Assembly: GCA_031459715.1 (NCBI GenBank)
Contig: JAVKIA010000002.1
Span: forward strand, 596-64,595
Direction: 5' to 3'
Length of the DNA stretch: 64,000 nucleotides
DNA from: Candidatus Humicultor tengchongensis
Lineage (GTDB): Bacteria; Sysuimicrobiota; Sysuimicrobiia; Sysuimicrobiales; Humicultoraceae
The notes under the pieces were generated by a model, which searched no databases, had not been told where the DNA came from, and saw only the letters and a program-made list of their open reading frames with translations. The position numbers were made by a program, and so were the translations under genes. Below, in pieces: positions 38,914-64,000 of this stretch; the first letter of the stretch is position 1; the number at the start of each line of letters is the position of its first letter.

Positions 38914-39331
38914 GCCGCAGATCGTCGCCTTCTGCTGCTTCTACTGCGCCTACGCTGCGGCCGACCTGGCCGGCGTGATGCGCCTCTCCTACCCGCCCAA
39001 TGTGAGGGTCGTCCTCCTGCCGTGCACCGGGGCGATCGACCCCCTCTACGTCCTGCGGGCCTTCGAGGACGGCGCCGACGGGGTCTTCGTCGCCGGGTGC
39101 CTGGAAGGACAGTGCCACTACCAGGTGGGCAACCTGCACGCAAAGAGCCGGGTGCAACGCCTGAAGGCCCTGCTGGACGAGGCCGGCATCGGTGGAGAGC
39201 GCCTGGAGATGTTCAACCTCTCCTCGGCGCAGGGGCCGCGCTTCGCCGAGGTGGCCAGGGAGATGACCGCGCGCATTACCGCGCTGGGGCCCTCGCCCCT
39301 GAACCGGGCGCGGGCGGAGGTGGCGCCGTGA
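38903..39331 (+). CDS. mvhD: methyl-viologen-reducing hydrogenase delta subunit-like protein
   Basis: IVAFCCFYCAYAAADLAG...LPCTGAIDP...VAGCLEGQCHY matches the MvhD signature. 142 aa. Confidence 0.85.
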   Translation: MPAEPQIVAFCCFYCAYAAADLAGVMRLSYPPNVRVVLLPCTGAIDPLYVLRAFEDGADGVFVAGCLEGQCHYQVGNLHAKSRVQRLKALLDEAGIGGERLEMFNLSSAQGPRFAEVAREMTARITALGPSPLNRARAEVAP

Positions 39332-40731
39332 GCACTTTAGGGGTTACCACCACTGGACGTGCTGCTGCCCCTGGTGGGGCTGCTACAACCGGGCCTGGAC
39401 GCCCCGGGCTCTCTTTGGCCGAGGAGGTCCGCCGGGAGAGTGGCCAGGACCTCTCGCTCTGCTTCCAGTGCAAGGTCTGTACCAGCGGCTGTCCGCTGGC
39501 CGGAGTCATGGATCTGGCCCCCCACGCCGTGGTGCGCGCGCTGCAGCTGGGGCGGGAGGAGCGGCTGCTGGCCGCCAACAGCTTCTGGATCTGCGCCTGC
39601 TGCCAGGCCTGCACGGCCCGCTGCCCCCAGGGGATCGACCTGGCCCGGGTCATGGACGCGCTGCGCATGGCGGCCAGGCGACGGCGCGTGCGCGCCGCCG
39701 TGCCGGAAGCGCCCATCTTCACCCAGGCGGCGGTGCGCTCCATCCACCTCTTCGGCCGCCTCTACGAGGCCGGCGTGGGGCTGGAGATCAACCTGCGCAC
39801 CCGCCGCCCCCTGCGCCAGCGACAGATGGCCCTGCGCATGCTGCGCGCGGGGAAGCTCCGCCTCCTCCCCGAGCGGGCGGGCCGCGCGGTGCGCCGTCCG
39901 GCCCCGGCAGGGGCCATCGCCTACTACCCCGGCTGCGCCCTGCACGCCAGCGCCCGCGAGTACGACATTTCCGCCCGGGCCACCTGTGCGGCCCTGGGCC
40001 TGCAGCTCCAGGAGATCCAGGGGTGGCGCTGCTGCGGGACCACCGCCGCGCACCAGTGGTCGCACCGGCTGGCCGTGGAGCTGCCGCTGGCGAACCTGGC
40101 GCTGGCGGCGCGGGACGGCTTCTCCACCGTTACCGCCCCCTGCGTGGCCTGCTTCTCCCGCCTGCGCCACGCCCAGGCTGAGGTCCCGGATCGGGCTCCC
40201 AGCGGGCTGCGGGTCCAGCACCTGCTGCACACCTTCCTGGAAGTCGGGACGGCAGCCATCCGCTCCCGGGTGAGGCGGCCGCTGCGCGGGCTGCGCGTGG
40301 CCTGTTACTACGGGTGCCTCCTCACCAGGCCGCCGCAGGTTACCGGGGCCACCCACCCGGAGAACCCCAGGGAGATGGAGGAGCTGGTCGAGGCTCTGGG
40401 AGCGGAGGCGGTGTCCTGGTCGTACAAGACCGAGTGCTGCGGCGCGGGGCATGCACTGGTGCGGCCGGACCTGGTCGTCGACCTGGTCGGCCGTATCCTC
40501 GCCGACGCCCAGGCGGCCGGCGCGGAGGCGCTGGCGGTGGCCTGCCCTCTGTGCCAGCACAACCTGGACGTCCGCCAGGAGGAGGCGGTGCGCGTTGCTG
40601 AACTTCCTGCCATGCCGGTCTTCTTCTTCACGCAGCTGGTGGCTCTGGCCTTCGGTCTGGAGACACAGGCGGCGCTGGACCGGCTGCTGGTGGACCCTCG
40701 GCCGCTGCTGCGTATGCGCGGGCTGATCTGA
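39328..40731 (+). CDS. heterodisulfide reductase HdrC-HdrB fusion (two 4Fe-4S then two CCG domains)
   Basis: CFQCKVCTSGCP and CACCQACTARCP (HdrC). CCG-domain motifs YYPGCALHAS, WRCCGT, CYYGCLLTRP, KTECCGAGH (HdrB). GTGA overlap with mvhD. Confidence 0.8.
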   Translation: MSTLGVTTTGRAAAPGGAATTGPGRPGLSLAEEVRRESGQDLSLCFQCKVCTSGCPLAGVMDLAPHAVVRALQLGREERLLAANSFWICACCQACTARCPQGIDLARVMDALRMAARRRRVRAAVPEAPIFTQAAVRSIHLFGRLYEAGVGLEINLRTRRPLRQRQMALRMLRAGKLRLLPERAGRAVRRPAPAGAIAYYPGCALHASAREYDISARATCAALGLQLQEIQGWRCCGTTAAHQWSHRLAVELPLANLALAARDGFSTVTAPCVACFSRLRHAQAEVPDRAPSGLRVQHLLHTFLEVGTAAIRSRVRRPLRGLRVACYYGCLLTRPPQVTGATHPENPREMEELVEALGAEAVSWSYKTECCGAGHALVRPDLVVDLVGRILADAQAAGAEALAVACPLCQHNLDVRQEEAVRVAELPAMPVFFFTQLVALAFGLETQAALDRLLVDPRPLLRMRGLI

Positions 40732-44115: not shown

Positions 44116-47016
44116 ATGGCCATGCTCACCCTGACCATCGACGGGAGGACCGTTGCGGTCCCTCCCGGGACAACCATTCTGAAGGCGGCGCTCGACGCAG
44201 GCATTGACATCCCGCACCTCTGTCATCACCCGGAACTGAGCCCCTGGGGCGGCTGTCGTCTGTGCCTGGTCGAGATCCAGGGGCAGCCTGCACCTGTGAC
44301 CAGCTGCGGGCTGCAGGTGAGCGAGGGGATGGTGGTGACCACGCACAGCGAAGAGCTGCAGGCCCACCGCAAGCAGGTCTTGGACCTGCTGCTCTCCGAC
44401 CACCCCCTCCGCTGCCTGGTCTGCGAGAAGGCGGGCAGGTGCGAGCTGCAGCGCTACGCCTACCAGTTCGGACTGGCCGATAGCACCTACCCTAGGGAAC
44501 TGTCGCGGACGCTGCGCCAGGAGGACAATCCCTTCTTCCTGCGCGACCACCAGTACTGCATCCTGTGCACCCGCTGCGTGCGCGTCTGTGATGAGGTGGT
44601 GGGCGCCGAGGCTATCGCCTTCTCCCAGCGCGGATTTCCGGCCTATGTGGCCACCCCCTTTGACCGCCCCCTGGCGGAGACCCCCTGTACTTTCTGCGGT
44701 AACTGCGTGCAGGTCTGCCCCACCGCAGCCCTGCTGCCGGTGGGGCGGATCGGAAAAGGACGAGAGTGGGAACTCACCCGCACCCGCACCGTCTGCAGCT
44801 ACTGCGGCACCGGCTGCGGTATCGAGGTGGCCACGCGCCGCGGGGAAATCGTCTACGTCTCCGGCTACCCCCAGGCGCCGGTCAACGGGGAGTTCCTCTG
44901 CACCAAGGGGCGGTTCGGACTGGACTTCGTCAATCACCCCGACCGGCTGCGCCGCCCGTGGGTGCGCCGGGACCTGGCCTACGCGGTCGGGCTGACCGCG
45001 GAGCCCCCGCCGGCGGAACTGGAGCGTTCCCCCCTGGAGCGCCTCCCCGGGCTGGCCCAGACCCATATCGAGGTGGACTGGGAGACCGCCCTGGACCTGG
45101 TGACAGAGCGGCTGGTGCAAGTGGTGCAGCGGAGCGGGCCCGATGCCGTGGGCGGGGTGGGCTCGGCGCTGTGCACCAACGAGGACAACTACCTCCTCCA
45201 GAAGCTGTTGCGCGCGGGGGTCGGCACCAACAACGTCGACCTCTGCGCCCGTCTCTGACACGCCCCTTCGGTGGCCGGTCTGGCCGCCGCATTCGGAAGT
45301 GGGGCGATGACCAACTCCATCCGCGAGATCCGGGACGCAGACTGCATCCTGGTCATCGGCTCCAACACCGGCGAGTCCCACCCCGTGGTCTCCTACGAGG
45401 TGGTGCGGGCGGTGCGCCGCGGGGCCACCCTCATCGTCATCGACCCGCGCAGGATCAGCCTGGCCCGCCACGCCACCATGCACCTGCGTCCTGCCCCGGG
45501 CACCGACCATGCCCTCTACCTGGGGATGCTCCATGCCATCGTCACCAACGACTGGTGCGACCGCGCCTTCATCGCCGAGCGCACCGAGGGGTTCGGCCAG
45601 CTGGTGGAGTCGCTCCGGCCCTGGACCCCACAGGCGGCCAGCGCCCTCTGCGGGGTGCCCCCGGAGCAGATCGTGGAGGCAGCGCGCCGTTACGCCCTGG
45701 GGTTGCGCCGGCAGCTCTCAGGCGATGGCTCCGCGCCCCCATCCCGGGGCGCCTCCACCATCCTCTACGGCATGGGGATCACCGAGCGGTCCAACGGGAC
45801 CGAACTGGTAAAGACGCTGGCCAACCTGGCCATGGTCTCCGGACAGGTGGGACGACCGTCCACCGGGGTCAACCCGCTGCGCGGGCAGAACAACGTGCAG
45901 GGCGGCTGCGACATGGGGGTGATGCCCACCGCCTTTCCCGGCTACCAGAAGGTGGAGGACCCCCAGGTGCGCGCCAAGTTTGCCCGGGCCTGGAGCCGGC
46001 GGCCGCGCACCGCGCCGCTGGACCTGCCTGCCCTGCCCGGGCTTACCTATGTAGAGATGGTTCGCGCTGCCGCCGCAGGGCAGATTAAAGCGCTGTACGT
46101 TATGGGCGCCAATCCGGTGATGACCCTCCCCGACTCGCGGTTCGTGCAGCGGGCGTTGCGCGCGCTGGACTTCCTGGTGGTGCAGGAGATCTTCCCCACG
46201 GAGACGGCCCAGCTCGCCCATGTGGTCCTCCCTGCCTCCTCCTTCGCCGAGAAGAGCGGCACCTTCGTCAACACGGAGCGGCGTTTCCAGCTCCTCCGCC
46301 CGTTCCTCTCTCCACCGGGGGAGGCTCGGCTCGACTGGGAGATCATCGCCGAAGTGGGACGCCGCCTGGGGCGGCGGTTGCGCCGCCCGGTGCGCTGGGA
46401 CTACCCCAGTGCGGCGGCGATCATGGAGGAGGTCGCCACGCTCTGCCCGCTGTTCGGGGGCATCAGCCACGAGCGCCTGGAAAAGGGAGGCCTGCAGTGG
46501 CCCTGCCCCAGCCCGGACCACCCGGGCACGCCCTTCCTGCACCGGGGGCAGTTCACCCGCGGCCGCGGGAGGTTCCACGTAACGACGCCCGCCCCTCCCT
46601 TCGAGGCCACCGACGCCGAGTACCCGCTGGCGATAAGCAGCGGCCGGATCCTCTATCACTACGACAGCGGGGCCATGTCCCGCCGGGCCGCGCCTCTGGC
46701 CTGGCGGGAGCCGCGGGCCTACGCGGAGATCCACCCTGCCGACGCAGCCAAGGCCGGGGTGCGCGACGGCGAGTCCTGCGTGATCACCACCCGGCGGGGC
46801 AGCATCCGGGTGCAGGCTCGCGTCAGCGAGGTGGTCCGCCCGGGGATGGTGTACCTGCCGTTCCACTTCCGCGAAGGGCCGGCTAACCTGCTGACCCACG
46901 CGGACGGCCTGGACGCCGGTGCCAAGACGCCCGAGTACAAGTTCACCGCGGGCCGGCTGGAGGGGCCTCCCGCACCGGGTGGAGAGCCACCGGGCGGAGA
47001 CCAGCCGGTGGACTGA
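44116..47016 (+). CDS. fdhA: selenocysteine-containing formate dehydrogenase alpha subunit (molybdopterin); in-frame UGA at 45256-45258 decoded as Sec
   Basis: N-terminal 2Fe-2S/4Fe-4S domains (CRLCLVEI, CILCTRCVRVC, CTFCGNCVQVCP). Track ORFs 44116..45258 and 45271..47016 are in the same frame. Sequence across the TGA reads [30 protein letters not shown], matching E. coli FdhF CCARV-U-HGPSVAGL. Confidence 0.8.
45262..45295 (+). promoter_or_regulatory. bacterial SECIS-like hairpin immediately 3' of the fdhA UGA
   Basis: GGUGGCC-GGUCU-GGCCGCC: a 7-bp stem (6 GC pairs and one UG wobble) with apical GGUCU, at the same spacing and loop motif as the E. coli fdhF SECIS. Confidence 0.6.
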
Positions 47017-51035: not shown

Positions 51036-52337
51036 CTACGCGGCCTGCAGCGCGGGGACCCGGACAGCGCGGGCGCGGGCCCCAAGCAGAGCGCGCACCA
51101 CCAGCTCCATCAGGCCGGTGACCTCGACAGCCAGACCGTAGTGACTGCTCAGGTCGCGGATCTGCAGGAAGCAGTTCTCGCAGGAGGTGGCCACCAGCGG
51201 TGCGCCCGCCGCCATGATCTGCTCGGCCTTCTTCCGCCCGGCGCGCAGCCGCCTCTCCTCGTACTCGGGGACGGCCACCAGCCCGCCGCCCCCGCCGCAG
51301 CAGTAGGCCTCGGCGCGGCTGGGGGTCATCTCGCGGAACTCCTGCACCGCCGCCCGCAGTACCACCCGCGGCTCCTCCAGCAGCCCGCCCTTGCGGGCCA
51401 GGTTACAGGAGTCGTGATAGGTCACCGGGAGGGGGTTGGCCGAGGGGTCCAGGCGCAGCCGGCCTTCCCGGATGTACTCCGCCAGGAGCTCGACGATGCT
51501 GCGCACCCTGAAGGGGAACTCCCCGCCGAACCAGCCGGGAGCCTCCCAGCGCAGCGCGGCGTAGGCGTGGCCGCACTCGGTGAGGACCACCTGCCGCACG
51601 CCCAGGTGCGTGGCCTCGTCCACGATGCGCCGGGCGATGGCCCTGGCCTTCTCTGGATCGCCCAGGAAGACACCGTAGTTGGAGGCCTCGAAGGCCGAGA
51701 GGGTCCAGTCCGCGCCGGCGGCATGAAAGATGATCGCCGCCGGCACGATGGTGTGCGCGCCTGAGAGGGCCACGTAGAGGATATCGGCGCCCTGCCGCTC
51801 CAGGGAAATGCGCAGCGCAGGGTCGCCCAATTGCTCCTGCGCCTGCTGCTCCAGGTCGGCCACGATCTCCCTGTAGATCTCCCGGAAGACCTGGACGTTT
51901 TCGCCGCGGGCCACGGCGGCGTCCGCCAGCTGGACCAGCATCTCCGGTGCCTTCCCCGCCGCGGCCAGCATCGCCCGCGCCGCCTTCATGATCAGCGCCG
52001 TATCCACGCCCAGCGGGCAGTTCATGGCACAGCGCTGGCACAGCGTGCAGGTGGCGAACGCGGCCTCACTCAGGGCGTCCAGGTCCCCCTCGGTGGCCTC
52101 CCCGGCGCGGACCCACCAGGGGAAGATCCGCCCCAGCGGGTCGTACTGCCGCCGGTAGAGACGACGCACCGCCTCGCTGCGGGCGGTGGGTGCGTCCTGG
52201 AGCTGGCCGGTGGAGGCGAAGACGTGGCAGGACTCCGCGCAGATGCCACAGCGGGCGCAGACCTCCAGTGCGGTCAGCACCCGCCGGTCCAGGGCCCGGC
52301 GGAAGGCGGCCAGCGCGCGCTGCACAGACTCACTCAT
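51036..52337 (-). CDS. HdrD/DsrK/GlpC-like Fe-S oxidoreductase (two 4Fe-4S plus two CCG domains)
   Basis: CARCGICAESCHV, CTLCQRCAMNCP. CCG motifs YHDSCNLARKG and AEAYCCGGGGG. Start ATG 52337 after GGGGGAAGG (minus strand), overlapping the upstream gene by 8 nt. Confidence 0.8.
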   Translation of the reverse strand: MSESVQRALAAFRRALDRRVLTALEVCARCGICAESCHVFASTGQLQDAPTARSEAVRRLYRRQYDPLGRIFPWWVRAGEATEGDLDALSEAAFATCTLCQRCAMNCPLGVDTALIMKAARAMLAAAGKAPEMLVQLADAAVARGENVQVFREIYREIVADLEQQAQEQLGDPALRISLERQGADILYVALSGAHTIVPAAIIFHAAGADWTLSAFEASNYGVFLGDPEKARAIARRIVDEATHLGVRQVVLTECGHAYAALRWEAPGWFGGEFPFRVRSIVELLAEYIREGRLRLDPSANPLPVTYHDSCNLARKGGLLEEPRVVLRAAVQEFREMTPSRAEAYCCGGGGGLVAVPEYEERRLRAGRKKAEQIMAAGAPLVATSCENCFLQIRDLSSHYGLAVEVTGLMELVVRALLGARARAVRVPALQAA

Positions 52338-52956
52338 GAACCTTCCCCCAGCGCAGCACCCCGCGCCGGCCAAAGCCGGCGCCGAAGAAGTAGCGGGCGA
52401 AGAAAAAGTAGAAGCAGTGCCGGATCTTGCCGAACGGGATATAGGCCAGCGTCGCCGCGGCCAGCCCGTAAAAGGCCGGCACCAGCGCAGGCACCACTAT
52501 GGCCGCCGCGGCGGCCAGGGTGAAGAGGCTCACCAGCGCCACGGCAAAGAAGTCGTCCGGCGTGCTCAGGCGGCGCAGGCGCGTCTCCACCACCCGGGCC
52601 AGGAGGCCGCCCAGGCCTGCCATGGCGCCGCCGGCGGAGAGGGTCACCAGCGCCCAGCGCAGCGGGCCGGCCCCCTGGGCCCGCCATGGGCCAACCAGCA
52701 GCGCCAGGAATGCGGCGCCGATGCCCAGGTGAAACACCACCCCACGCAGGTAGGCCAGCATGTGGCGCCGCGTGCTCTCCTTGGCCCAGGGCAGCATCCC
52801 CCAGCTGAAGGCGTAGAGGACGCCCTGCGCAACTGACCCCGCCGGCCTGGCCATCTCCGGTCGGTAAGGTCGTCCCAGCAGCAGGACCAGATGTCGGGCC
52901 AGGCCGTTAACGGCGACGGCGCACGCCCCGGCCAGTACCCACCCCCAGGAACCCAT
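52330..52956 (-). CDS. NarI/HdrE/DsrM-like membrane cytochrome b partner of the CCG Fe-S protein
   Basis: About 5 TM helices with His in helices (ARHLVLLLG, RRHMLAYLRGVVFHLGIG). TAATG overlap with the tusA stop. Confidence 0.5.
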   Translation of the reverse strand: MGSWGWVLAGACAVAVNGLARHLVLLLGRPYRPEMARPAGSVAQGVLYAFSWGMLPWAKESTRRHMLAYLRGVVFHLGIGAAFLALLVGPWRAQGAGPLRWALVTLSAGGAMAGLGGLLARVVETRLRRLSTPDDFFAVALVSLFTLAAAAAIVVPALVPAFYGLAAATLAYIPFGKIRHCFYFFFARYFFGAGFGRRGVLRWGKVHE

Positions 52957-53195
52957 TACTTCACCCGGCGGACGGCAAAGTGGATGACCTTGTCCTCCCG
53001 GCCGATGGAGACCAGCTCCTGGCCGGTGGTACGGCACCAGGCCGGGATGTCCGCCAGCACCCCCGGGTCGGTGGCCGTGGCCTCGATGACGTCCCCTACC
53101 TGCACCGTCTTCACCGCCTGGGCCAGCTTCACCACCGGGATGGGGCAGAGCAGACCCTTCAGGTCCAGAACCAGTCCGCGCTTGGTGGCTTCCAT
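52956..53195 (-). CDS. tusA: TusA-like sulfurtransferase (SirA/YedF family)
   Basis: LDLKGLLCPIPVVKLAQAV is the TusA Cys-Pro-x-Pro motif. 79 aa. GGGAGGG RBS on the minus strand. Confidence 0.8.
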   Translation of the reverse strand: MEATKRGLVLDLKGLLCPIPVVKLAQAVKTVQVGDVIEATATDPGVLADIPAWCRTTGQELVSIGREDKVIHFAVRRVK

Positions 53196-53271
53196 CCCCC
53201 TACCCTCCCTCGTTCTCGGATCGCCGGTTCGGATCACCCTGCTCAGATCACCGGTGCTGCATGGGCTGGTT

Positions 53272-53790
53272 TCAGATGAACAAAGTGACCCTGGAGCGTG
53301 CGGCCTCTTCCAGGAAGGCAGCCACGCCCACGACCTCCTGCACGCTGTCCACCAGGTCCTCCCGCCTGACCTCCATGACCTCCATGCTCATCTGGCAGGC
53401 CAGCATCTTCACTCCCAGCTCCGCGGCCAGGGCCCGCAGCTCCGGTACGGAGGTGACATTGTGCTTCCTCATCATCTGCTTGAACATCCAGCGGCCGGCG
53501 CCGCCAAAGTTCAGCTTGCTGGGGCCCACACCGTCTGCATCCTTGAGGAACCAGCCCAGCATCCGCCCCATGGCACTGGCCCCGGTGCGTACGGGCTTCT
53601 TCACCGCCTGCAGGCCCCAGAAGGTGAAGAACATGGTCACCTCCATTCCGGAGGCGGCGGCGCCCGTGGCGATGACGAAGGCGGCCATCAGCCGGTCCAT
53701 CTCCCCGCTGAAGACCACCAAGGACAGTCTGTTGCCCACAGCTGGCTCTCCCCGGGGGGCCGCCTCAGCCTGTGCCATCACCGCAGTCAT
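53272..53790 (-). CDS. DsrE/DsrF-family sulfur-relay protein
   Basis: LSLVVFSGEMDRLMAAFVIATGAAASGMEVTMFFTFWG matches the DsrE-like fold signature. C-terminal Cys (MLACQM). GAGGTGGG RBS. Confidence 0.7.
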   Translation of the reverse strand: MTAVMAQAEAAPRGEPAVGNRLSLVVFSGEMDRLMAAFVIATGAAASGMEVTMFFTFWGLQAVKKPVRTGASAMGRMLGWFLKDADGVGPSKLNFGGAGRWMFKQMMRKHNVTSVPELRALAAELGVKMLACQMSMEVMEVRREDLVDSVQEVVGVAAFLEEAARSRVTLFI

Positions 53791-53822
53791 AGTTCCCACC
53801 TCACTGACGGCTTCCTCGACCG

Positions 53823-53838
53823 ATACTCTCCGGAGTAT
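53823..53838. promoter_or_regulatory. inverted repeat ATACTC-TCCG-GAGTAT in the divergent dsrE/cstR-like promoter region; candidate CsoR-family operator
   Basis: Read from the sequence. The TACT...AGTA arms are reminiscent of RcnR/CsoR-family operators (established knowledge). Lies 33 nt upstream of the dsrE-like start. Confidence 0.35.
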
Positions 53839-53986
53839 GCCCCAACCGAGGGTAGCTCGCCCCGCCGCACAGGCCAATCAGGCGAGCAGATGATTGGGCG
53901 CTCGGTCGTTCGCCCGATGACGTCCACATTCCCGGGATCTACTCTTCCCGGTAGGGTTGATTCTGCTCGCCGGCAGGGAGGGAAGC

Positions 53987-54271
53987 ATGAGCGCCAGCCC
54001 CAAGCTGGACCGGGAGACGACAGCCACAGCCGTGCGCCGCCTGCGCCGCGTGGAGGGCCAGGTCAAGGGCGTGCAGCGCATGCTGGAGGAGGATCGGGAC
54101 TGCGCGGAGATCATCCAACAGATCGCCGCCGCGCGCTCCGCTCTGGATCGGGTGGCCCTGGACCTGATCTCCACCGGCCTGGAGCAGTGCCTGCGGCTGG
54201 AGCTGCGGGGCAAGACCCGGGCCCGAAGCACGCTGCACAAGCTGCAGAAGACCTTCATGATGCTGCGCTAG
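53987..54271 (+). CDS. CsoR/RcnR-family (DUF156) metal/persulfide-sensing repressor, two-Cys CstR-like
   Basis: RRLRRVEGQVKGVQRMLEEDRDCAEIIQQIAAARSALDRVALDLISTGLEQC matches the CsoR fold. Cys at the sensing positions (DRDC...EQC) with no intervening His, as in persulfide-sensing CstR. Confidence 0.75.
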   Translation: MSASPKLDRETTATAVRRLRRVEGQVKGVQRMLEEDRDCAEIIQQIAAARSALDRVALDLISTGLEQCLRLELRGKTRARSTLHKLQKTFMMLR

Positions 54272-54376
54272 GCGGCAGGCCGCCTGCGGCGCAGGGCCTA
54301 GTCAGGACGGACTAACCAGAATCCTTCTCATCGCCGATACACCCTGGGAGTATAGCCTGTCCTAGGATGGCTTGGG

Positions 54377-55505
54377 ATGAGGCGCGTGCGCTTGTGGGCA
54401 CTCCCGGCCGCGGTGGTCATGGTCACCCTGCCCCTGATTGGGGCTGCCCTGACCTCCTGGCACGTCCCCGCACCCCCGGTGGCCGCAGCACAGGCGGCAG
54501 CGGCCCAGACCTCCTGCGTCAGATGCCACACCAGCCGGGCGGCGCTGGAGCCGCTGGTACGCCCCCTGCCGCCTCCACCAGCCGAAGGTGAGGGGTGAGC
54601 GGCGCCGCTGCTCCCGGCGGGGGCACCCTACGAGAGGAAGCTGGTCGATCCCCGGTTCCTGCAGACGGTGCACGGGCAACTGGGCTGTACGGCCTGCCAC
54701 GGGGGTCGTCCCGAGGCGGCAGACGCGGCCACGGCGCACCAGGGGATGGTCGGCCGCCCCTCGGAGGATCCCCTGAAGGCGTGCGGCTCCTGCCACCCGG
54801 ACATTACCGCCACCTTCACCAGGAGCCTGCACTTCACTACTCGGGGGCTGGAGCGGGGGCTGCAACGGGTGCCACAACGGGCGGGTGGGGGCTGAGTTTA
54901 TGGGGCAGTACGAGGGATTTCCCCCGGACGTGCACTTTGCCAAGGCGAAGATGGCCTGCACCGGCTGCCACAGCGGTGTGCAATTGCACGGCCAGGGCGA
55001 AGCTGCTGCGGCCAACCGCTTCGCTGTCCCCACCAGGCCGGCGTGCTCCGGCTGCCACCCCGCGGCGGTTCCGGGGAAGAGCACCCTGCGGGTGCACACT
55101 GTCCACGGGACGAAGCTGGCCTGCCAGGTCTGCCACGGCAACGTCAGCCGGAGCTGCTTCAACTGCCACGCCGGAGAGGGAGCGACCTCCCGACCCATGC
55201 TGAAGATCGGGCGCAACCTGCGGCCGGAGCTTCCCTATCTCTATGTTCTGCTTCGCCACGTGCCCACCACGCCAGACATGATCGACAGGCGGACGGGACT
55301 GTCCAACACTCTGGTCCACTTCGACCGCATCCCCACCTGGAAGACGGCGACGCCACACAACATCCAGCGGGTGACGCCGCGCAGCCAGACCTGCGCCGCC
55401 TGTCACAACAGCCCGAGTTTGTTCCTCCGGTTGCAGGACCTCGACCCGAGTGACTCGCAGGCCAACGGGCGGGCGGTCACAGCACCGCCAGCCCCAATCC
55501 GGTAA
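54377..55505 (+). pseudogene. multiheme (nine CxxCH) cytochrome c with signal peptide, apparently disrupted by an in-frame TGA (54596-54598) and a +1 frameshift in a G-run (~54842-54859)
   Basis: Three track ORFs (54377..54598, 54668..54895, 54885..55505) read as one protein: CVRCH, CTACH, CGSCH, CNGCH (only visible in the shifted frame), CTGCH, CSGCH, CQVCH, CFNCH, CAACH. Confidence 0.55.
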
Positions 55506-55518
55506 GGAGGGAAGAGCG

Positions 55519-55956
55519 ATGCGCAGGGTGGTTCTGACTCTGGTGGTTGCCATGGCCCTGGGCGCGGCCGTGCCCGCGCTGGGGCAGGCTCCTGCTGTGC
55601 AGGAGCTCGTGGCGGCCTATCTGACCGCGCCTCCGGCGGACTTCAACTGCATCGCCGCGCCGGCGCTGAAAGCCCGTCTGGACGCCGGGGAGAAGATCTT
55701 CCTGCTGGACGTACGCGAGCCGTCGGAGTACGCCAACGGCCACATTGCCGGTGCGGTGAACGTCCCCATCCGCACCCTGGTGGCCAACCTGGATAAGCTC
55801 CCGCCCAGGGACGCCTCTATCGTCACCTACTGCGGCGTGGGCACACGTGGTGCCTACGCCACTATGGCCCTCTCCCTCCTCGGTTACACCAACGTGAAGA
55901 ACCTGGGGCTGGGGCTGAACGGCTGGACGGCCCAGGGCTTCCCCACCGTCAGGTAG
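55519..55956 (+). CDS. secreted single-domain rhodanese-like sulfurtransferase
   Basis: Signal peptide MRRVVLTLVVAMALGAAVPALGQAPA. Rhodanese active-site loop YCGVGTRGAYA. AAGGAGGG RBS. Confidence 0.8.
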   Translation: MRRVVLTLVVAMALGAAVPALGQAPAVQELVAAYLTAPPADFNCIAAPALKARLDAGEKIFLLDVREPSEYANGHIAGAVNVPIRTLVANLDKLPPRDASIVTYCGVGTRGAYATMALSLLGYTNVKNLGLGLNGWTAQGFPTVR

Positions 55957-56064: not shown

Positions 56065-58110
56065 GTGGATGTGGATACTCTGTCGGCCCGATGGTTCAGC
56101 CTGTCCCTGAGGGGGCATGCTGGAGGTGTGGCGCGCTCCGGCGGACATCGGCGGGCCGCTGGCGGCGCGCCCGGGTGGGAGGCCCCGGGGGGCGGGGCGG
56201 TGCGTCTGCACCTGAAGATCACCCTGTGGATCGTGGCCATCTTCCTCATCGTGGGAGCATTCTCCATCTACGCCCTGGTCCTCTTCCAGCGCAGCGCCAC
56301 CCTGCAGCAGTTCGAGGCCATGGCCAAGACCCTCACCGGGACCATCCTGCACAGCCTCACCACCACCATGATCAACAACAACCCCCGGGAGATGAAGCAG
56401 ATCATCGGGCACATCGAGGAGACGCCAGGGATCCATCGCGTGCGCATCTACTCCCCCAACGGGAGGGTCTGGGCCTCCTCCCGGGTGGAGGAGGTGGGCG
56501 TTCTGCGGCCCTCCGCCCTCCTGGCCCGCGTCCTCAGCCGCCGGGAGGCGGCGGCGGAGGAGCGCCCGGAGGCCGGGGAGCTGCTCGTCCTCACCCCCGT
56601 CGAGAACCGCGCCGAGTGCCGCGCCTGCCACGCCGCCGACGGCCCGGTGCTGGGGGCCATCGGCGTCTCCCTGGGCACGGGGCAGGTATCGGCACACCTG
56701 CGCTCCACCGCCCAGCTTCTGGCCGGCCTGGTGGGCTTTACCTTCCTCCTGGCGCTGGGGACGCTCAGCGTCCTCCTTGGCCGCTTCGTCCTGGATCCGC
56801 TGTCGGCCATGGTGGCCGCGGTGCAGGAGCTCTCCCGGGGGAACTACCGGGCCCGGGCCGCAGTGAGCACCGGGGACGAGCTGGGGGTGCTGGCGGCGGC
56901 CTTCAACGACATGAGCGCCCGGATCGAACGATCCACCGCCGCGCTGGCCGAGGAGATCAGCGACCTTACCCGGCGCCTCTCCACGCTCACCGTCTTCAGC
57001 AGGACCCTTACTGCGGCGGCAGACCTCTCTTCAGCCCTGCACGAGGCGGCGGCGGCCATGCGGGAGGCGGTCCGCGCCGATGCCTGCGTTGTCTACGGCC
57101 GCAGCGACGGGGGCCTGCATCCCATGGCCGCAGCCGGAGACCCCACACCGGTCGCCCCCTGGGGGGCGGCGGTGGCGGAGGAGCTGGCCGGCCGCTCCCT
57201 CTCCACTCCGGGCGGCCCAGGCGAGGTCCAGCACCCCATCCCCGGGGTCGGCGCGGTCCTGGCCCTCCCCCTGCGCACGCGGGACCAGGACCTGGGAGCC
57301 ATGCTGGTGGCCCGGGCGCAGGAGCAGCCGTTCGAGCGCACCGACCTGATGCTGCTGCACACGGTGGCCAACCAGCTGGCCATCGCCATCGAGAACGTCC
57401 GTCTCTTTGAAGAGGTGCGGGAGAAGGAGAACCTGCGTCGCGAGCTGCTCAGCCGGCTGATAAGCGCTCACGAGGACGAGCGCTTCCGCATCTCCCGCGA
57501 GCTGCACGACGAGGTCAGCCAGTCGCTGACCGGGCTGATGATGCGCCTCAATGCCGCTGAGGAGGTTGTCCCCCAGGACCTGGAGCAGGCGCGGGCCACC
57601 CTGGCCGCGGTGCGGGGGGTGGCCGAGCAGACGCTGGAGGAGGTGCGCAAGATCATCTTCGCCCTGCGTCCTACGCTGCTGGACGACCTGGGCCTGATCC
57701 CCGCCGTGCGCCACTACGCCAAGAACCTGCTGGAGCCGGCGGGCGTGCAGGTCCGCCTCTCCGCCAGCGGGTTCGGGCAGCGGCGGCTGCCCCGGCCCGT
57801 GGAGACCACAGTCTTCCGCGTGGCCCAGGAGGCAGTGACCAACGTCGCCCGCCATGCCCAGGCCCGCCTGGCCACCATCACCCTGGAGCTCACCGACGGC
57901 ACCGTCCGCCTGACGGTCACCGACGACGGTGTGGGCTTCGACCCGGAGGCGACCCGGGCCGACCCCGCCCGGCGGCGCCTGGGGATCGTGGGGATGGAGG
58001 AGCGGGTGGCCCTGCTGGGCGGCAGGCTGCGGATCAGCTCACGCCCCGGGGAGGGGACGACGGTGCAGGTGGAGCTGCCCGTGGACTTGGCTGTCCCCGG
58101 TGGGGTGTGA
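56065..58110 (+). CDS. sensor histidine kinase (HisKA_3/NarX-like) with a heme c (CxxCH) motif in the extracytoplasmic sensor domain
   Basis: Two TM helices flank a ~160-aa domain containing ENRAECRACHAADGP. Then HAMP, GAF-like and HisKA_3 (ELHDEVSQSLTGL) domains, and HATPase (GMEERVALLGG). Start uncertain: GTG 56065 or GTG 56200. Confidence 0.85.
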   Translation: MDVDTLSARWFSLSLRGHAGGVARSGGHRRAAGGAPGWEAPGGGAVRLHLKITLWIVAIFLIVGAFSIYALVLFQRSATLQQFEAMAKTLTGTILHSLTTTMINNNPREMKQIIGHIEETPGIHRVRIYSPNGRVWASSRVEEVGVLRPSALLARVLSRREAAAEERPEAGELLVLTPVENRAECRACHAADGPVLGAIGVSLGTGQVSAHLRSTAQLLAGLVGFTFLLALGTLSVLLGRFVLDPLSAMVAAVQELSRGNYRARAAVSTGDELGVLAAAFNDMSARIERSTAALAEEISDLTRRLSTLTVFSRTLTAAADLSSALHEAAAAMREAVRADACVVYGRSDGGLHPMAAAGDPTPVAPWGAAVAEELAGRSLSTPGGPGEVQHPIPGVGAVLALPLRTRDQDLGAMLVARAQEQPFERTDLMLLHTVANQLAIAIENVRLFEEVREKENLRRELLSRLISAHEDERFRISRELHDEVSQSLTGLMMRLNAAEEVVPQDLEQARATLAAVRGVAEQTLEEVRKIIFALRPTLLDDLGLIPAVRHYAKNLLEPAGVQVRLSASGFGQRRLPRPVETTVFRVAQEAVTNVARHAQARLATITLELTDGTVRLTVTDDGVGFDPEATRADPARRRLGIVGMEERVALLGGRLRISSRPGEGTTVQVELPVDLAVPGGV

Positions 58111-58111
58111 G

Positions 58112-58768
58112 ATGGCCCTGCGGGTACTGATCGTGGACGACCACACCCTGGTCCGGGCGGGCATCCGCGCCCTGCTCCAGGCGGCCCCCAGCGTGGAGGT
58201 GGTGGGAGAGGCGGAAGACGGACTGGGCGCCCTGGATCAGGTGCGCGCCCTGCGCCCGGACGTGGTCCTGATGGACGTGGCCATGCCCCGGCTGGGCGGC
58301 GTGGAGGCGACGCGGCGGATCAAGGAGGAGTTCCCCCAGATGCAGGTGCTGGCCCTGACAGTGCATGACAACGAGGAATACCTGTTCCAGATGCTGCGCG
58401 CCGGCGCCTGCGGCTACGTGCTGAAGAAGGCCAGGCCGGCAGAGCTGGTGGACGCCATAGAGGCCGCCTCGCGCGGCGAGACCTATCTGTACCCGTCCAT
58501 GGCCACAGCCCTGGTAGCGGACTACCTGCGACGGGTGGAATCCGGCGAGGAGACCGGAGCCTACGAGGAGCTGACGCCGCGGGAGCGGGAGATTCTCAAG
58601 CTTATCGCCGAAGGGTACACCAGCGCTGAGATCGGCGAGCTGCTGCACCTCTCGGTGAAGACCGTGCAGGCCCACCGGCAGCACATCATGGAGAAGCTGG
58701 ACCTGCACCGGCCGGCGCAGCTCATCAAGTACGCCATCCGCAAGGGGCTGGTGGAGGCCGACTCCTGA
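58112..58768 (+). CDS. NarL/LuxR-family response regulator
   Basis: LIVDDHTLVRAGIRALL (REC) and LTPREREILKLIAEGYTSAEIGELLHLSVKTVQAHR (LuxR HTH). Confidence 0.9.
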   Translation: MALRVLIVDDHTLVRAGIRALLQAAPSVEVVGEAEDGLGALDQVRALRPDVVLMDVAMPRLGGVEATRRIKEEFPQMQVLALTVHDNEEYLFQMLRAGACGYVLKKARPAELVDAIEAASRGETYLYPSMATALVADYLRRVESGEETGAYEELTPREREILKLIAEGYTSAEIGELLHLSVKTVQAHRQHIMEKLDLHRPAQLIKYAIRKGLVEADS

Positions 58769-58828
58769 GGCCGGGGCAGCGGCGGTCCACCTCCCTCTTG
58801 CGTCGCTACCTCAATGGCGATAGAATCT

Positions 58829-58851
58829 TTGTTGAGAATGAATCTCAACAA
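58829..58851. promoter_or_regulatory. perfect 9-bp inverted repeat TTGTTGAGA-ATGAA-TCTCAACAA spanning the candidate start of the Fur-family gene; candidate Fur-family operator
   Basis: Read from the sequence. Fur-family proteins commonly autoregulate through palindromic boxes (established knowledge). Confidence 0.4.
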
Positions 58852-59335
58852 GCCAGAGGTTCTGCCCTTCCTCCGGTCTCTGCGGGCGGCCGGGCACCGG
58901 GTGACCCCGCAGCGCCTGGCCCTTTTTGCGGCGCTGCGCGCCGCCGTCGACCACCCCTCGGCGGAGACACTGTTCCGCCGGGTGCGGCAGCGCCACCCCA
59001 CGCTCAGCCGGGCGTCGGTCTACAAGACCCTGCACCTGCTGAGCGCACTGGGGCTGGCGGTTCCGCTGGAGGGCGCCGACGGCGTCACCCGTTACGACGG
59101 CCGCTCCGTCCCCCACGTGAACGCCGTCTGCGTGAGCTGCGGGACCGTGGTCGACCTGGCCGCGGATGTGAGCCGGCTGCTGCCGCGGCTGGCCCGGGCC
59201 TCCGGGTTCCTCCTGGAGCGCCACCTCACCGTGTACGGTCTCTGCCCGCGGTGCCGGCAGGCAGGGCAAGCCCACTCCAAGGAGGTGCAGCATGGGAGAG
59301 CAAGGTCGGTCCGTCGTCGAGGTGGACGTCGCTGA
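58838..59335 (+). CDS. Fur-family metalloregulator (Fur/PerR/Zur type)
   Basis: GHRVTPQRLALFAAL (DNA-binding helix). Structural Zn Cys pairs CVSCG and CPRC. Start ambiguous (ATG 58814 or 58838). Confidence 0.75.
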   Translation: MNLNKPEVLPFLRSLRAAGHRVTPQRLALFAALRAAVDHPSAETLFRRVRQRHPTLSRASVYKTLHLLSALGLAVPLEGADGVTRYDGRSVPHVNAVCVSCGTVVDLAADVSRLLPRLARASGFLLERHLTVYGLCPRCRQAGQAHSKEVQHGRARSVRRRGGRR

Positions 59336-59786
59336 GGTCATCCGCGAGTTGAAGAAGGCCTACCTGGATGAGCTCCTGGCGTTCTACTCCTACTGGATCA
59401 CCTCCCAGGTGGCAGAGGGCTTCCACGGGGAGGAGCTGATGGAGCACTTCAAGGAGGAGGCCACTGACGAGCTGGGCCACGCGGCCAAGCTGGCCGCCCG
59501 CATCATCGAGCTGGGCGGGGATCCGGTGGTCCACCCCCGTGACTGGGAGGCAGGGGCGAACGCGCCCTGGACCGCCCCCCGGCAGGACTGGGCGGACGCG
59601 GACGGCATGGTGGAAGACCAGATCAAGGCCGAGCGCGGCGCCATCGCCGCCTACAACCGTCTGGCCAAGCTGACCCTGGGCAAGGACCACGCCACCTACG
59701 CTCTGGCCACGGAGCTGCTGCGGGACGAGGTTCGCCACGAAGAGTTCCTGGAGAACCTGCTGGCGAAGCCGGGTACGCGGCGCTAG
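59292..59786 (+). CDS. bacterioferritin-like ferritin-fold diiron protein
   Basis: ELLAFYSYWITSQ, ATDELGHAAKLAARI and ELLRDEVRHEEFLENLL align with Bfr di-iron ligand helices. AAGGAGG RBS. Confidence 0.7.
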   Translation: MGEQGRSVVEVDVAEVIRELKKAYLDELLAFYSYWITSQVAEGFHGEELMEHFKEEATDELGHAAKLAARIIELGGDPVVHPRDWEAGANAPWTAPRQDWADADGMVEDQIKAERGAIAAYNRLAKLTLGKDHATYALATELLRDEVRHEEFLENLLAKPGTRR

Positions 59787-60297: not shown

Positions 60298-61356
60298 TCA
60301 GCAGATCCGTGGCAGCTGCTCACCACTTAGCATGTCAACAACCCGCGAAGCACCGATGGTCGTCGTCATGGTGACGAGACCTCCCTTGCGGGCGGCCTCC
60401 ACGCGGCCGATGATCCGTGCCTCTGCGCCCAGAGCGGTGCCCCACAGGATCTCCAGCGCCCGCTGTGCGTCCTGTGGCGCCACAAAGGCCACGAAGCGCC
60501 CCTCGTTGGCCACGTAGAGGGGGTCCAGGCCCAGCATCTCGCAGGCGCCCTGCACGTCGGGGCGCACGGGGATGGCCCGCTCCTCCAGCTCCACGTGCAC
60601 CCCGGCGGCGCGGGCGATCTCGATGACCGCCCCGGCCAGCCCCCCGCGGGTGAGGTCGCGCAGGCAGTGCACCTGAACCCCACCCTCCAGCAGGGCCATC
60701 ACCGGCTGCACCAGCGGAGCGCAGTCGGAGGTGATCTCGCTTTCGAAGCTCAGCCCCTCGCGCACGGCCATGACCGCCATTCCGTGCCGGCCCACGTCGC
60801 CGTTGAGCAGGAGGACGTCGCCGGAGCGGACCCGCTGCGGGCGGATGTCCCGCCCGGGGGGCACGATCCCCAGGCCGGCCGTGGTGACAAAGAGGCCGTC
60901 CCCCTTGCCCCGGTCCACAACCTTGGTGTCGCCGGTGACGATGGGCACACCGGCGGCGGCCGCAGCGTCCTGCATGGAGCGGACCACGCGCCACAGCGTC
61001 TCCATGGGCAGCCCCTCCTCCAGGATGAAGGCGGCGCCCAGCGCCAGCGGCCGGGCGCCGCACATGGCCAGGTCGTTGACGGTGCCGTTTACGGCCAGCG
61101 TGCCGATGTCCCCCCCGGGGAAGAAGAGCGGGCGGACCACGTAGCTGTCGGTGCTCAGGGCGATCCGACCCCCGTCCGCCTGCAGCACCGCCCCGTCGTG
61201 GCGCACCTCCAGGGGCGGATTGCGGAAGGCAGCAAGAAACATCTTCTCGATCAGCCCGTGCATCAGCTTGCCCCCGCCGCCGTGCGCCAGCAGGACCTGC
61301 GGGTACTCGCTGATGGGGATGGGGCAGGAGAGGACGAAGTCCTCCGCGTCCCTCAT
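60298..61356 (-). CDS. hypE: [NiFe] hydrogenase maturation factor HypE
   Basis: AIR-synthase-like family. [13 protein letters not shown]-terminus and C-terminal ...GEQLPRIC (HypE terminal Cys). Confidence 0.9.
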
Positions 61357-61414
61357 GGCGGTGCGCACCTCCCTGGCGTCGTGGCGGAACACCCTGTGCC
61401 GGCGCGCAGCGCTG

Positions 61415-62518
<1,104 letters not shown>

Positions 62519-62548
62519 GGCCTCCTCACCCGCCTCCGGTCAGGTCGG

Positions 62549-62833
62549 TCACTCCCCGGAGTAGCGCGGCGGCAGCTCCGCGGACACCGCGTCTCCCGCT
62601 GGCTCCTGCGCCTCCAGCTCGGCCAGGTAGGCGAAGATTTGCTCCGCCTCCCGCTCGTCCACCCGGCTGAGGGCGAATCCCACGTGCACCATGACGTAGT
62701 CGCCGACCTGCGCCTCGGGGACGAAGGCCAGGTTGACCTCCTTGATGACGCCCCCGAAGCTCACCCGGCCGCTGCGCTCCAGACCCTCACCGGGGGTGAT
62801 GCTGACGATCTTTCCGGGAACCGCCAGGCACAT
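62549..62833 (-). CDS. hypC: hydrogenase maturation chaperone HypC
   Basis: MCLAVPGKIV N-terminus. 94 aa. Confidence 0.9.
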   Translation of the reverse strand: MCLAVPGKIVSITPGEGLERSGRVSFGGVIKEVNLAFVPEAQVGDYVMVHVGFALSRVDEREAEQIFAYLAELEAQEPAGDAVSAELPPRYSGE

Positions 62834-62839
62834 CTGGTC

Positions 62840-64000
62840 TCACTCCTCCCGCTGCAACCGCGCCCCCACCACCTGGCCCAGGGACAGGCCGCCGTCGTTG
62901 GGCGGAATGCGCTGGTGCCAGTAGGGGCGGAATCCCTCACCGCGCAGCCGCCGTACCGCCCGTTCCAGTAGGTAGGCATTCTGAAAGCAGCCGCCGGTGA
63001 GGAGGACACGTTCCTCCCCGATGCGGCGGGCTACGGCCAGCGTAGCCTCTACCAGCGCGTTGTGGAAGCGGGCGGAGATGAGCCCGGCAGGTGAGCCCCC
63101 GCCCTGGTCGTCGAGGACGGCCCGCACCATTGGCTCCCAGTCCAGGAGAAAAAGGAGCCGGCCGGCGGCGTCTGCGGACTCGGTCACCGGCAGGGGGTAG
63201 GCCTCCCGGGTGGTCACGCCGTCCAGCAGGAACTCCAGCTCCATCGCCGCCTGTCCCTCGAAGCTGCACCGCTGCCGGATCCCCAGAAGGGCCGCCATTG
63301 CATCGAAGAGGCGCCCCACGCTGGAGCAGGCCGGCGAGTTGACCCCGCGGGCCAGCATCTGCCGCAGCACCTGCCGTTGGGCTGCGGAGAACGAGGCGAC
63401 CGGAGCCAGGTGCACCATCTCCAGAGCGGGGTCACCGAAGGCAGCGTGGAGCAGGCCGACCGCCGTCCGCCGCGGCTCCCGCACCGCCTGCTCGCCACCC
63501 GGCAGGGGGAAGCGCCGGAAGGAGGCGACGCGGCTGAAGCCCTCCGCAGTCACCAGGAGGAACTCCCCGCCCCAGACCGTGCCGTCCATCCCGTCCCCGC
63601 TGCCGTCCCAGGCCACACCCAGGACAGGGCCGTCCAGCTCGTGCTCGGCCATGCAGGCCAGGACGTGCGCGTGGTGGTGCTGCACCCGCAGCAACGGCAG
63701 GCCCCAGCGCTCCGCGTGCTGCGTGGAGAGGTAGTCGGGATGCGCGTCGCAGGCCACAACGCGGGGCGGAGCCTGATAGAGGCGGGAGAAGTCAGCGATG
63801 ACCCTGATGAAGGCCTCGTAGGCCGGGGCGGTCTCCAGCGTGCCGATGTGCTGGCTGATGAAGACCTGCTCCCCCACTGCCAGGGCCACGGTGTTCTTCA
63901 GGTGGCCGCCTACGGCCAAGAGGGTCCCGTCTCCAGCAGCCGGGCCGCGCAGGGTCACGGGCAGAGGGGCGTAGCCGCGAGCCCGCCGCAGTAGCAGCGG
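62840..64000 (-). CDS. hypF: carbamoyltransferase HypF, C-terminal (Kae1/YgjD-like) part; gene continues upstream beyond the window end
   Basis: AVGGHLKNTVALAV...GGCFQNAYLLER... matches the HypF C-terminal domain. The ORF stays open to position 64000. Confidence 0.85.
   Translation of the reverse strand, partial: PLLLRRARGYAPLPVTLRGPAAGDGTLLAVGGHLKNTVALAVGEQVFISQHIGTLETAPAYEAFIRVIADFSRLYQAPPRVVACDAHPDYLSTQHAERWGLPLLRVQHHHAHVLACMAEHELDGPVLGVAWDGSGDGMDGTVWGGEFLLVTAEGFSRVASFRRFPLPGGEQAVREPRRTAVGLLHAAFGDPALEMVHLAPVASFSAAQRQVLRQMLARGVNSPACSSVGRLFDAMAALLGIRQRCSFEGQAAMELEFLLDGVTTREAYPLPVTESADAAGRLLFLLDWEPMVRAVLDDQGGGSPAGLISARFHNALVEATLAVARRIGEERVLLTGGCFQNAYLLERAVRRLRGEGFRPYWHQRIPPNDGGLSLGQVVGARLQREE

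Follow-up and report, generated by a model that had tools for sequence, protein, structure and literature searches.

What does a CsoR-family repressor with two cysteines control when its gene stands divergently to genes for sulfur carriers and for a redox pair of the DsrMK kind? The question is raised by a locus at 51036-55956 of a 64-kb stretch of DNA with ~70% G+C (hereafter the window), in which genes were called from open reading frames (ORFs) together with Pfam and NCBIfam hidden Markov model (HMM) scans. We suggest, with a probability of roughly one half, that the locus is a thiol-switch regulon handling sulfane sulfur, i.e., persulfide and polysulfide. The best reading of its minus-strand cassette is a quinol-linked reductase of sulfane sulfur bound to TusA and DsrE2, for which we infer the substrate, the reaction and its reductive direction. 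Each part is of a type described before (a CstR-like repressor, a TusA/DsrE2 relay, DsrMK-type module and a multihaem cytochrome with a candidate selenocysteine (Sec)). Their combination appears, judged from the sequences, to lie outside any described family, because the equivalog tests fail for DsrK, HmcF, TmcB and DsrE2, DsrC and DsrAB are not adjacent, and no description of a DsrE2-TusA-DsrMK-like cassette was found in the literature, including the DsrE2 survey of Tanabe et al. The features of the locus are as follows (position, strand, description).

51036-52337, minus: DsrK/HmcF/TmcB-like cytoplasmic Fe-S (CCG) protein, 433 amino acids (aa); Pfam CCG and Fer4_8
52330-52956, minus: NarI-fold membrane protein, 208 aa, DsrM/TmcC/HmcE-like partner; no Pfam family, fold match
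52956-53195, minus: TusA sulfur carrier, 79 aa; PF01206, E 2e-19; LLCPIPV, CPxP cysteine C17
53272-53790, minus: DsrE2-like sulfur carrier, 172 aa; PF13686 DrsE_2, 157 bits, E 5e-46
53823-53838, no strand: putative operator O1, ATACTCTCCGGAGTAT, 32 nt ahead of the dsrE2 start codon (ATG)
53940-53953, no strand: putative operator O2, TACTCTTCCCGGTA, 33 nt ahead of the regulator start codon (ATG), at a distance of 117 bp from O1
53987-54271, plus: CstR-like CsoR-family repressor, 94 aa; PF02583, 83 bits against a cut-off of 22.8; C39, C68
54337-54353, no strand: putative operator O3, ATACACCCTGGGAGTAT, 24 nt ahead of the cytochrome start codon (ATG)
54377-55505, plus: disrupted gene of a secreted multihaem cytochrome c, candidate selenoprotein; frame and orthologue comparison
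54596-54598, plus: in-frame TGA, candidate Sec codon in PAEGEG-U-AAPLLPAGAPYERKLVD; TGA conserved in orthologues
54609-54625, plus: 7-bp hairpin resembling a Sec insertion sequence (SECIS), apical loop G(U/G)C; RNAalifold, 9 orthologues
55519-55956, plus: secreted single-domain rhodanese, 145 aa, active-site loop CGVGTR; PF00581, E 6e-21; N-terminal signal-like sequence
56200-58768, plus: HAMP-GAF-HisKA_3 histidine kinase and GerE-type response regulator (58112-58768); Pfam and gene calls

An earlier reading of the same DNA (the initial annotation) had named a DsrE-like protein, a TusA with its CPxP motif, a membrane protein and a CCG Fe-S protein, and these identities were upheld by Pfam and NCBIfam, as were a divergent DUF156 (PF02583) regulator with two cysteines and a rhodanese with a signal peptide. 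It had also described the operon as joined by a TAATG and by 8-nt overlaps. This is true of the TusA/membrane junction (TAATG) and of the membrane/CCG junction (8-nt overlap, ATGAGTGA), but dsrE2 and tusA lie ~77 nt apart without overlap. The length of 172 aa for the DsrE2-like protein is counted from an ATG preceded by GAGGTGG.

The regulator and its operators

The sensing residues of the regulator were compared across 7 orthologues. C39 and C68 are invariant. The position four residues before the second cysteine, which is histidine in Cu/Ni sensors, is occupied by G, S or A (glycine in the window), and the residue before the first cysteine is aspartate (RDC, as in the CstR of Streptococcus pneumoniae, SpCstR) in place of the tyrosine of CsoRs (YC). 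The alignment thus bears out the CstR-like arrangement of two cysteines without histidine that had been proposed initially, with no histidine of the Cu/Ni site in any of the sequences. This corresponds to the x-C-x-C fingerprint (two conserved cysteines, no histidine at the Y position), which defines the persulfide-sensor clusters of the CsoR family (Fakhoury et al. 2021, PMC8643695). The best match in PDB was 7MQ1, the SpCstR of the same study, which belongs to cluster 10 of a sequence similarity network (SSN) whose persulfide-sensor clusters are 3, 4 and 10; it scored 53.7 bits, as compared with 50.6 for InrS and 49 for two CsoRs. The diagnostic residues, unlike the similarity score, would place the regulator as a CstR type.

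Like the CstRs of S. aureus, E. faecalis and S. pneumoniae (7MQ1), the regulator combines the PF02583 fold, the histidine-free x-C-x-C pattern and the RDC motif with TAC-N8/9-GTA operators containing G/C tracts and with adjoining sulfurtransferase or sulfur-carrier genes (TusA, DsrE2, rhodanese). It differs in being only ~37% identical to SpCstR, in its host, a high-GC Armatimonadota metagenome-assembled genome (MAG), and in having three operators. The known CstR regulon further contains SQR, persulfide dioxygenase (PDO) and CoA-persulfide reductase, which are absent here, a membrane DsrMK-like module standing in their place. A second precedent is TTHA1953 of Thermus thermophilus, a dithiol CsoR-family regulator of sox/sulfur oxidation genes (PMC10318464). 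It shares with our protein the Cys39/Cys68 pair, targets in sulfur metabolism, a high-GC host and TAC/GTA palindromes. In contrast, its consensus TACNNTACNNNNGTANNGTA (core ATAC-N4-GTAT) has no G/C tract, and the genes that it controls encode Sox proteins and cytochrome c-552 (PMC10318464).

An inverted repeat had been predicted at 53823-53838, and ATACTCTCCGGAGTAT does lie exactly there, as the sole ATAC-N8-GTAT of the 64 kb (0.07 expected); it is an operator candidate. This palindrome is real but does not stand alone: two further operator-like sites, at 53940-53953 and 54337-54353, had been missed, and the latter (O3) is the sole ATAC-N9-GTAT of the window (0.01 expected). Paired TAC-N8/9-GTA sites, spaced by about 116 bp (114-120), occur in the regulator-dsrE2 interval of all seven CsoR-type genome loci (7/7) and in the metagenome loci L098 and L102; the dsrE2-proximal site, equivalent to O1, is found in every CsoR-type locus. 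Equivalents of O3 precede the cytochrome in the metagenome loci L098/99, L102/103, L100, L096 and L090/93/94/95, and in L008 such a site lies directly upstream of a kinase gene, which suggests that the kinase belongs to the same regulon.

As a control, TAC-N8/9-GTA sites were counted upstream of dsrE2 with the loci split by regulator type. We found 4.4 sites per kb where the regulator was of the CsoR type, 0.25 where it was of the ArsR type and 0 where it was of the MerR type, with a background of ~0.1 per kb. The motif is therefore enriched ~45-fold only where a CsoR-type regulator is present, and its occurrence follows that of the regulator rather than that of the cassette. It has the architecture (ATAC-C tract-N-G tract-GTAT) of the S. 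mitis cst operator ATATACCCTTATGGGGTATAT, which has been validated experimentally (PMC8643695). From these comparisons, the CstR-type repressor probably controls the neighbouring cassette via three conserved sites. A scan of 53600-54500 for sigma-70 promoters and terminators found nothing, and no Rfam family was matched in the window.

The cassette and its distribution

The CCG protein contains two four-cysteine ferredoxin motifs and one C-terminal CCG domain, CX(n)CCGX(m)CXXC. Its invariant cysteines, determined from 51 orthologues, are C27/30/33/37, C97/100/103/107, C255, C311, C346, C347, C386 and C389. NCBIfam scores were 262 bits for DsrK (cut-off 400), 243 for HmcF (750) and 229 for TmcB (735). 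Its membrane partner, named nitrate reductase gamma in some JGI records, gave weak NCBIfam matches to TmcC (E 1.2e-5) and HmcE. When its AlphaFold2 model (pLDDT 89) was compared with PDB by Foldseek, NarI chains were the sole convincing matches (probability 1.0, TM score 0.46-0.49), while a profile of the family run against PDB sequences returned a chance NMDA-receptor match only and none to NarI, so that the relation to NarI is one of fold. Of the initial description of a di-haem, cytochrome-b-like protein, the NarI-like fold stands, and the two haems are a candidate feature at most, as only three histidines (H65, H76 and H180) are invariant in 84 sequences. Assignment of the pair to HdrDE/DsrMK-type systems proved sound: by HMM scores and fold it belongs to the DsrMK/HmcEF/TmcCB superfamily.

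Among the carriers, C17 of TusA is invariant in 55 orthologues and C132 is the sole invariant cysteine of the DsrE2-like protein (49 orthologues), which scored 85 bits against the NCBIfam DsrE2 model, below its cut-off of 210.

With DsrMK/HmeCD, HmcEF and TmcCB, the pair has in common the gene of a membrane subunit, here with a NarI fold, adjacent to that of a cytoplasmic protein with two [4Fe-4S] motifs and a catalytic C-terminal CCG domain. It departs from them in scores below the equivalog thresholds, in three conserved histidines rather than four, and in that no dsrC or dsrAB is adjacent, whereas dsrE2-tusA and a redox-type regulator always precede the cassette. Another point of comparison is the rhd-tusA-dsrE2 clusters of Allochromatium, Thioalkalivibrio and Aquifex, in which tusA and dsrE2 likewise stand together, each product with a single active-site cysteine, with a rhodanese nearby. 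These clusters feed rDsr or sHdr, for which there are no adjacent genes here; the partner is instead the DsrMK-like pair, and the rhodanese is secreted and pairs with a cytochrome.

Relatives of the CCG protein are numerous (55-90% identity), and the membrane protein family, which lacks a Pfam domain, comprises 738 clusters and occurs in 266 species-level genomes. Synteny was analysed in 80 loci, sorted into two types. Type A consists of regulator, DrsE_2, TusA, membrane and CCG genes; the full set was found in 44 loci, and the CCG protein scored >500 bits in 51. These 44-51 species-level loci belong to Armatimonadota, Chloroflexota, Bacteroidota/Kryptonia and others. The regulator is of the CsoR type and divergent in the Armatimonadota-like clade, of the ArsR type and co-directional in ~40 Chloroflexota loci, and of a Cys-rich MerR type in Bacteroidota/Kryptonia. 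Co-occurrence of tusA-dsrE-hdrDE-like genes with a CstR-like regulator, which the initial annotation had put forward for checking, is thus partly borne out: the synteny recurs, but most cassettes are from Chloroflexota and have another regulator. The three regulator types are interchangeable, each with conserved cysteines, and one cassette under CsoR-, ArsR- or MerR-type control amounts to a natural experiment on unrelated sensors converging on one signal.

In the ArsR-type regulators (L003, 5213-5539, and the ~40 Chloroflexota loci), a cysteine in the motif HAE[IV]C, before the LADPxR helix, is ~90% conserved, and a second cysteine is present in some sequences only. Membership of the SqrR/BigR group was considered for these proteins but is not claimed, as they are nearer to NmtR/CmtR and have the conserved cysteine at a different position. 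The MerR-type regulators (L005, 5143-5595; L019; L036) have a C-terminal domain with about nine conserved cysteines (PCW..GC..C..PCW..C..EC..CP..C), which could be a metal- or cluster-binding redox sensor.

In the neighbourhoods of the 44 full cassettes, nothing recurs besides the regulator, DsrE2, TusA, the membrane/CCG pair and a HisKA_3/GerE two-component system; the five genes therefore form a self-contained unit. Neither dsrC nor dsrAB recurs beside it. The HAMP-GAF-HisKA_3 kinase and GerE regulator of the window are possibly co-transcribed with the module, their orthologues come after it in all close relatives (L008, 3806-6485; L009; L098; L100; L102), and NarL-type pairs occur near Thermoflexus and type-B loci. 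In type B (L018 and ~28 other loci), the membrane and CCG genes are followed by a different DsrE-like gene, without upstream dsrE2-tusA. In L018 (7953-12200) this encodes a 131-aa DsrE-like protein, with an 83-aa ORF, a CobB/CobQ-type amidase (DsrN-like) and HemA downstream. That type-B loci are true dsr clusters was rejected, with no DsrAB found within 8 kb of L018.

The multihaem cytochrome and its in-frame TGA

The initial annotation had reported an intact nine-haem cytochrome. Its nine CxxCH motifs are real, but they are spread over three pieces, called as proteins of 73, 75 and 201 aa in the source record, and what remains is a broken version of the gene for a candidate selenoprotein with 11 haems. 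A signal sequence and haem 1 are followed by the TGA, by haems 2-3, by a frameshift with a deletion and by six haems in another frame. Alignment with the 11-haem orthologues placed the frameshift and a deletion of 62 codons, which would carry two haems, near 54866-54885, within a run of five G. With these codons and the reading frame lost, the copy in the window is probably a pseudogene. Related loci differ in this respect: the cytochrome is intact in L098, shortened in L102 and absent from L008 and L009, and from this pattern decay in the clade of the window looks real.

The same TGA is found in the orthologue of L001 (PAEGEG*AGP), which has 11 haems. Thirteen related loci share this TGA and the peptide sequence to either side of it, and three distant ones have it as EGEG-TGA-[AS]GPPPP (L105, position 3962; L106, 3842; L107, 2571). 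The latter belong to one MAG of Spirochaetes, one labelled Deltaproteobacteria and a further source, which brings the number to 16 loci from several phyla. Because of this conserved in-frame TGA in an EGEG-U-AGP motif, we consider the cytochrome a candidate selenoprotein. Full-length homologues have cysteine (P0294, P0332), alanine, threonine or tryptophan at the TGA position. Most database entries of the family start just past the TGA (~350 aa, ~80% coverage), having been truncated by gene callers; that downstream part lacks a signal peptide, and a c-type cytochrome would need export. The family is also present in L088-L101, and L106 contains two cytochrome-rhodanese pairs in tandem.

The organism itself decodes Sec, as follows from the FdhA gene of the window (44116-47016, plus strand), which together with a NuoF-like gene closes a Wood-Ljungdahl cluster and is split by an in-frame TGA (45256-45258) in a classical Sec site (NVDLCARL-U-HAPSVAGL). 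No tRNA-Sec was found in the window. An AIRS-family ORF at 60298-61635 was considered as SelD and rejected, being HypE. From 9 orthologues, RNAalifold predicts the SECIS-like hairpin to begin 13 nt past the U of the UGA. Its folding speaks against the Sec reading: shuffled sequences are just as stable, and the only changes within it are wobble changes, so that the case for Sec rests on the comparative evidence.

Wherever a locus reaches beyond the 3' end of the cytochrome gene, a rhodanese gene comes next, also in the Spirochaetes and Deltaproteobacteria MAGs, and the cytochrome-rhodanese pair stands beside the cassette in two gene orders, that of the window and that of L001. In L001 the cytochrome gene with its candidate Sec codon is immediately preceded, on its own strand, by the gene for a GltD/SudA-like oxidoreductase of 468 aa with Fer4_20 and Pyr_redox_2 domains (10263-11669, minus strand).

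The closest counterpart is MccSep (ExtKL, GSU2937-2936), a Sec-containing pentahaem polysulfide reductase (Sci Adv 2026, PMC13510729). Both are periplasmic multihaem cytochromes c with an in-frame UGA, a downstream hairpin, a sulfur-related context and a rhodanese gene nearby. The cytochrome described here has 11 haems against 5, comes from different phyla and a different family, and would have its Sec between haems 1 and 2 (EGEG-U-[AS]GP), whereas that of MccSep is near the C-terminus (PDG-U-PTP). It did not match the NCBIfam model of ExtKL (NF040886), no PDB sequence gave a match better than E 0.017, and the EGEG-U cytochrome is absent from the three cytochrome selenoproteins given in a 2026 review. 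This candidate family, hidden by truncated gene calls, is the most unexpected by-product of the analysis and follows closely on the first Sec-haem polysulfide reductase.

Proposed function, alternatives and genomic setting

Under the proposed mechanism, a tetrameric CstR-type repressor (Cys39/Cys68) would bind the three operators, upstream of its own gene, of dsrE2 and of the cytochrome-rhodanese(-kinase) unit. Persulfides may cross-link the two cysteines between protomers (C39-S(n)-C68') and so release the repressor, by analogy with characterised CstRs. DsrE2 (Cys132) and TusA (Cys17) would carry sulfane sulfur as cysteine persulfides or as a mixed tri- or polysulfide. The NarI-fold protein would exchange electrons with the menaquinone pool, and the DsrK-like subunit, via the cluster of its C-terminal CCG domain, would cleave the S-S bond to yield H2S and free carriers, TusA/DsrE2 taking the place that DsrC has for a DsrMK-type pair. 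In relatives with an intact gene, the 11-haem, probably Sec-containing cytochrome and the rhodanese may act on external polysulfide, by analogy with MccSep and Sud-type rhodaneses. The response of the regulator to persulfide and the import of sulfur, both proposed in the initial annotation, are to be seen as candidate roles only, and the mechanism is least secure as to the direction in which electrons flow.

Several points weigh against this reading. The case rests on sequence and predicted structure, and menaquinol reduction of persulfide is perhaps thermodynamically unfavourable; the gene content would fit the opposite, oxidative reaction just as well. Similarity alone gives no firm CstR placement, given the closeness of the SpCstR, InrS and CsoR scores, and the ArsR-type regulators of most cassettes are nearer to metal sensors (NmtR, CmtR) than to SqrR/BigR. 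The CCG and membrane proteins stay below every NCBIfam equivalog cut-off, the latter having three invariant histidines as against the four haem ligands of NarI, and the cytochrome is out of frame in the window. In vitro, TTHA1953 reacts to H2O2 and Cu(II) as well (PMC10318464), and a dithiol CsoR therefore need not be persulfide-specific.

Were the reductive reading true, a quinone-coupled and possibly energy-conserving DsrMK-type complex would use TusA-S(n)-DsrE2 as its 'heterodisulfide' in Chloroflexota, Armatimonadota and Bacteroidota, and DsrE2, to which work on sulfur relays expressly assigns no settled function (PMC11094781), would gain a defined role. DsrMK-type modules have so far been tied to DsrC, so the pairing of TusA/DsrE2 with a DsrMK-like cassette offers a testable hypothesis for both questions. 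The cassette also suggests a route for the disposal of reactive sulfur in anaerobes without persulfide dioxygenase, and the rhodanese-paired cytochrome would be, next to MccSep and independent of it, another type of Sec/haem reductase of polysulfide or sulfur. The full joint claim, of a DsrC-independent DsrMK-type persulfide reductase acting on TusA-S(n)-DsrE2 polysulfide plus a new ~11-haem selenoprotein family with the motif EGEG-U-[AS]GPPPP, is a tentative one and on the doubtful side.

Of the alternatives, the one that survives best has the same parts working in the opposite direction: sulfur bound to TusA/DsrE2 (e.g., SQR-derived) would undergo oxidation to a protein tri- or disulfide at the DsrK-like subunit, and menaquinone would take up the electrons, as has been suggested for the DsrMK(JOP) of sulfur oxidisers, which would make the cassette part of a sulfide-dependent energy metabolism and not of detoxification. 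Thiol-to-quinone electron flow is thermodynamically easier. Moreover, rhd-tusA-dsrE2 clusters are known from sulfur oxidisers (PMC11094781), and if the lineage is CSP1-3, sqr has been reported in 109 of 112 MAGs, with sulfide proposed as electron donor (PMC11604079). Nevertheless, no enzyme leading from S0 to sulfite (DsrAB, sHdr, PDO, Sox) recurs beside the cassette in the 44 loci, and a repressor that opens upon a rise in sulfane sulfur fits sulfur removal better. We regard the oxidative direction as unlikely, if a serious contender.

It is less probable still that cytochrome and rhodanese in the periplasm, the b-type membrane subunit and the CCG subunit make up one electron-coupled complex, a conduit resembling Tmc/Hmc. 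The best HMM matches (TmcC/HmcE and HmcF/TmcB) point that way, as do the constancy of the cytochrome-rhodanese pair beside the cassette in two gene orders and the operator that also precedes the cytochrome. However, most cassettes (40+ loci, in Chloroflexota) have no adjacent cytochrome, the cassette is intact where the cytochrome is absent (L008, L009) or decayed (the window, L102), and the cytochrome-rhodanese pair occurs alone in other phyla.

A general regulon of thiol oxidation (disulfide or peroxide stress), in which the regulator would sense any thiol oxidant and the complex would re-reduce oxidised TusA/DsrE2 or other protein disulfides, seems improbable to a slightly higher degree. 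It could draw on the loss of DNA binding by TTHA1953, whose C39 and C68 have the same numbering, with H2O2 or Cu(II) in vitro, and on Fur-family and ferritin-like genes 3 kb downstream, but all structural genes belong to dedicated sulfur-carrier or sulfur-redox families (TusA, DsrE2, rhodanese, DsrK-like), and neither a peroxidase nor a thioredoxin recurs with the cassette in the 44 loci. Finally, that the regulator senses Cu(I) or Ni/Co, in the manner of CsoR/RcnR/InrS, and has its neighbours by coincidence is very unlikely: despite best partial NCBIfam matches to RicR, FrmR and RcnR and InrS and CsoR scores that nearly equal that of CstR, the 7 orthologues have no histidine at the Y position, the regulator has neither an N-terminal histidine nor a tyrosine before its first cysteine, no CopA, CopZ or RcnA gene is nearby, and the operator co-varies with the CsoR-type regulator of the cassette.

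As for the source of the window, its CCG protein is identical to one annotated in the Armatimonadota MAG GCA_031459065.1, and a related locus is from 'Armatimonadetes bacterium CSP1-3'. The label of an acetogen-type organism, given initially because the window holds a Wood-Ljungdahl cluster, has to be withdrawn in favour of an Armatimonadota MAG (possibly CSP1-3) which has that cluster without being a classical acetogen. The cluster looks complete (17899-47016), with carbon monoxide dehydrogenase (Prismane), acetyl-CoA synthase, CFeSP subunits, RACo, DUF3786, FTHFS and FolD, and further contains a 1494-aa HdrA-like flavoprotein, a second CCG protein (39022-40731) and a NuoF-like protein. Another multihaem cytochrome (2003-3130, plus strand, 375 aa) with an MtrC/MtrF-like domain match adjoins genes for fumarate hydratase and a succinate dehydrogenase/fumarate reductase flavoprotein. 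Downstream of the module, at 58814-59786, the Fur-family regulator gene overlaps the start of the ferritin/rubrerythrin-like gene, and this pair is followed by the hydrogenase maturation genes HypE, HypD and HypF (60298-63958).

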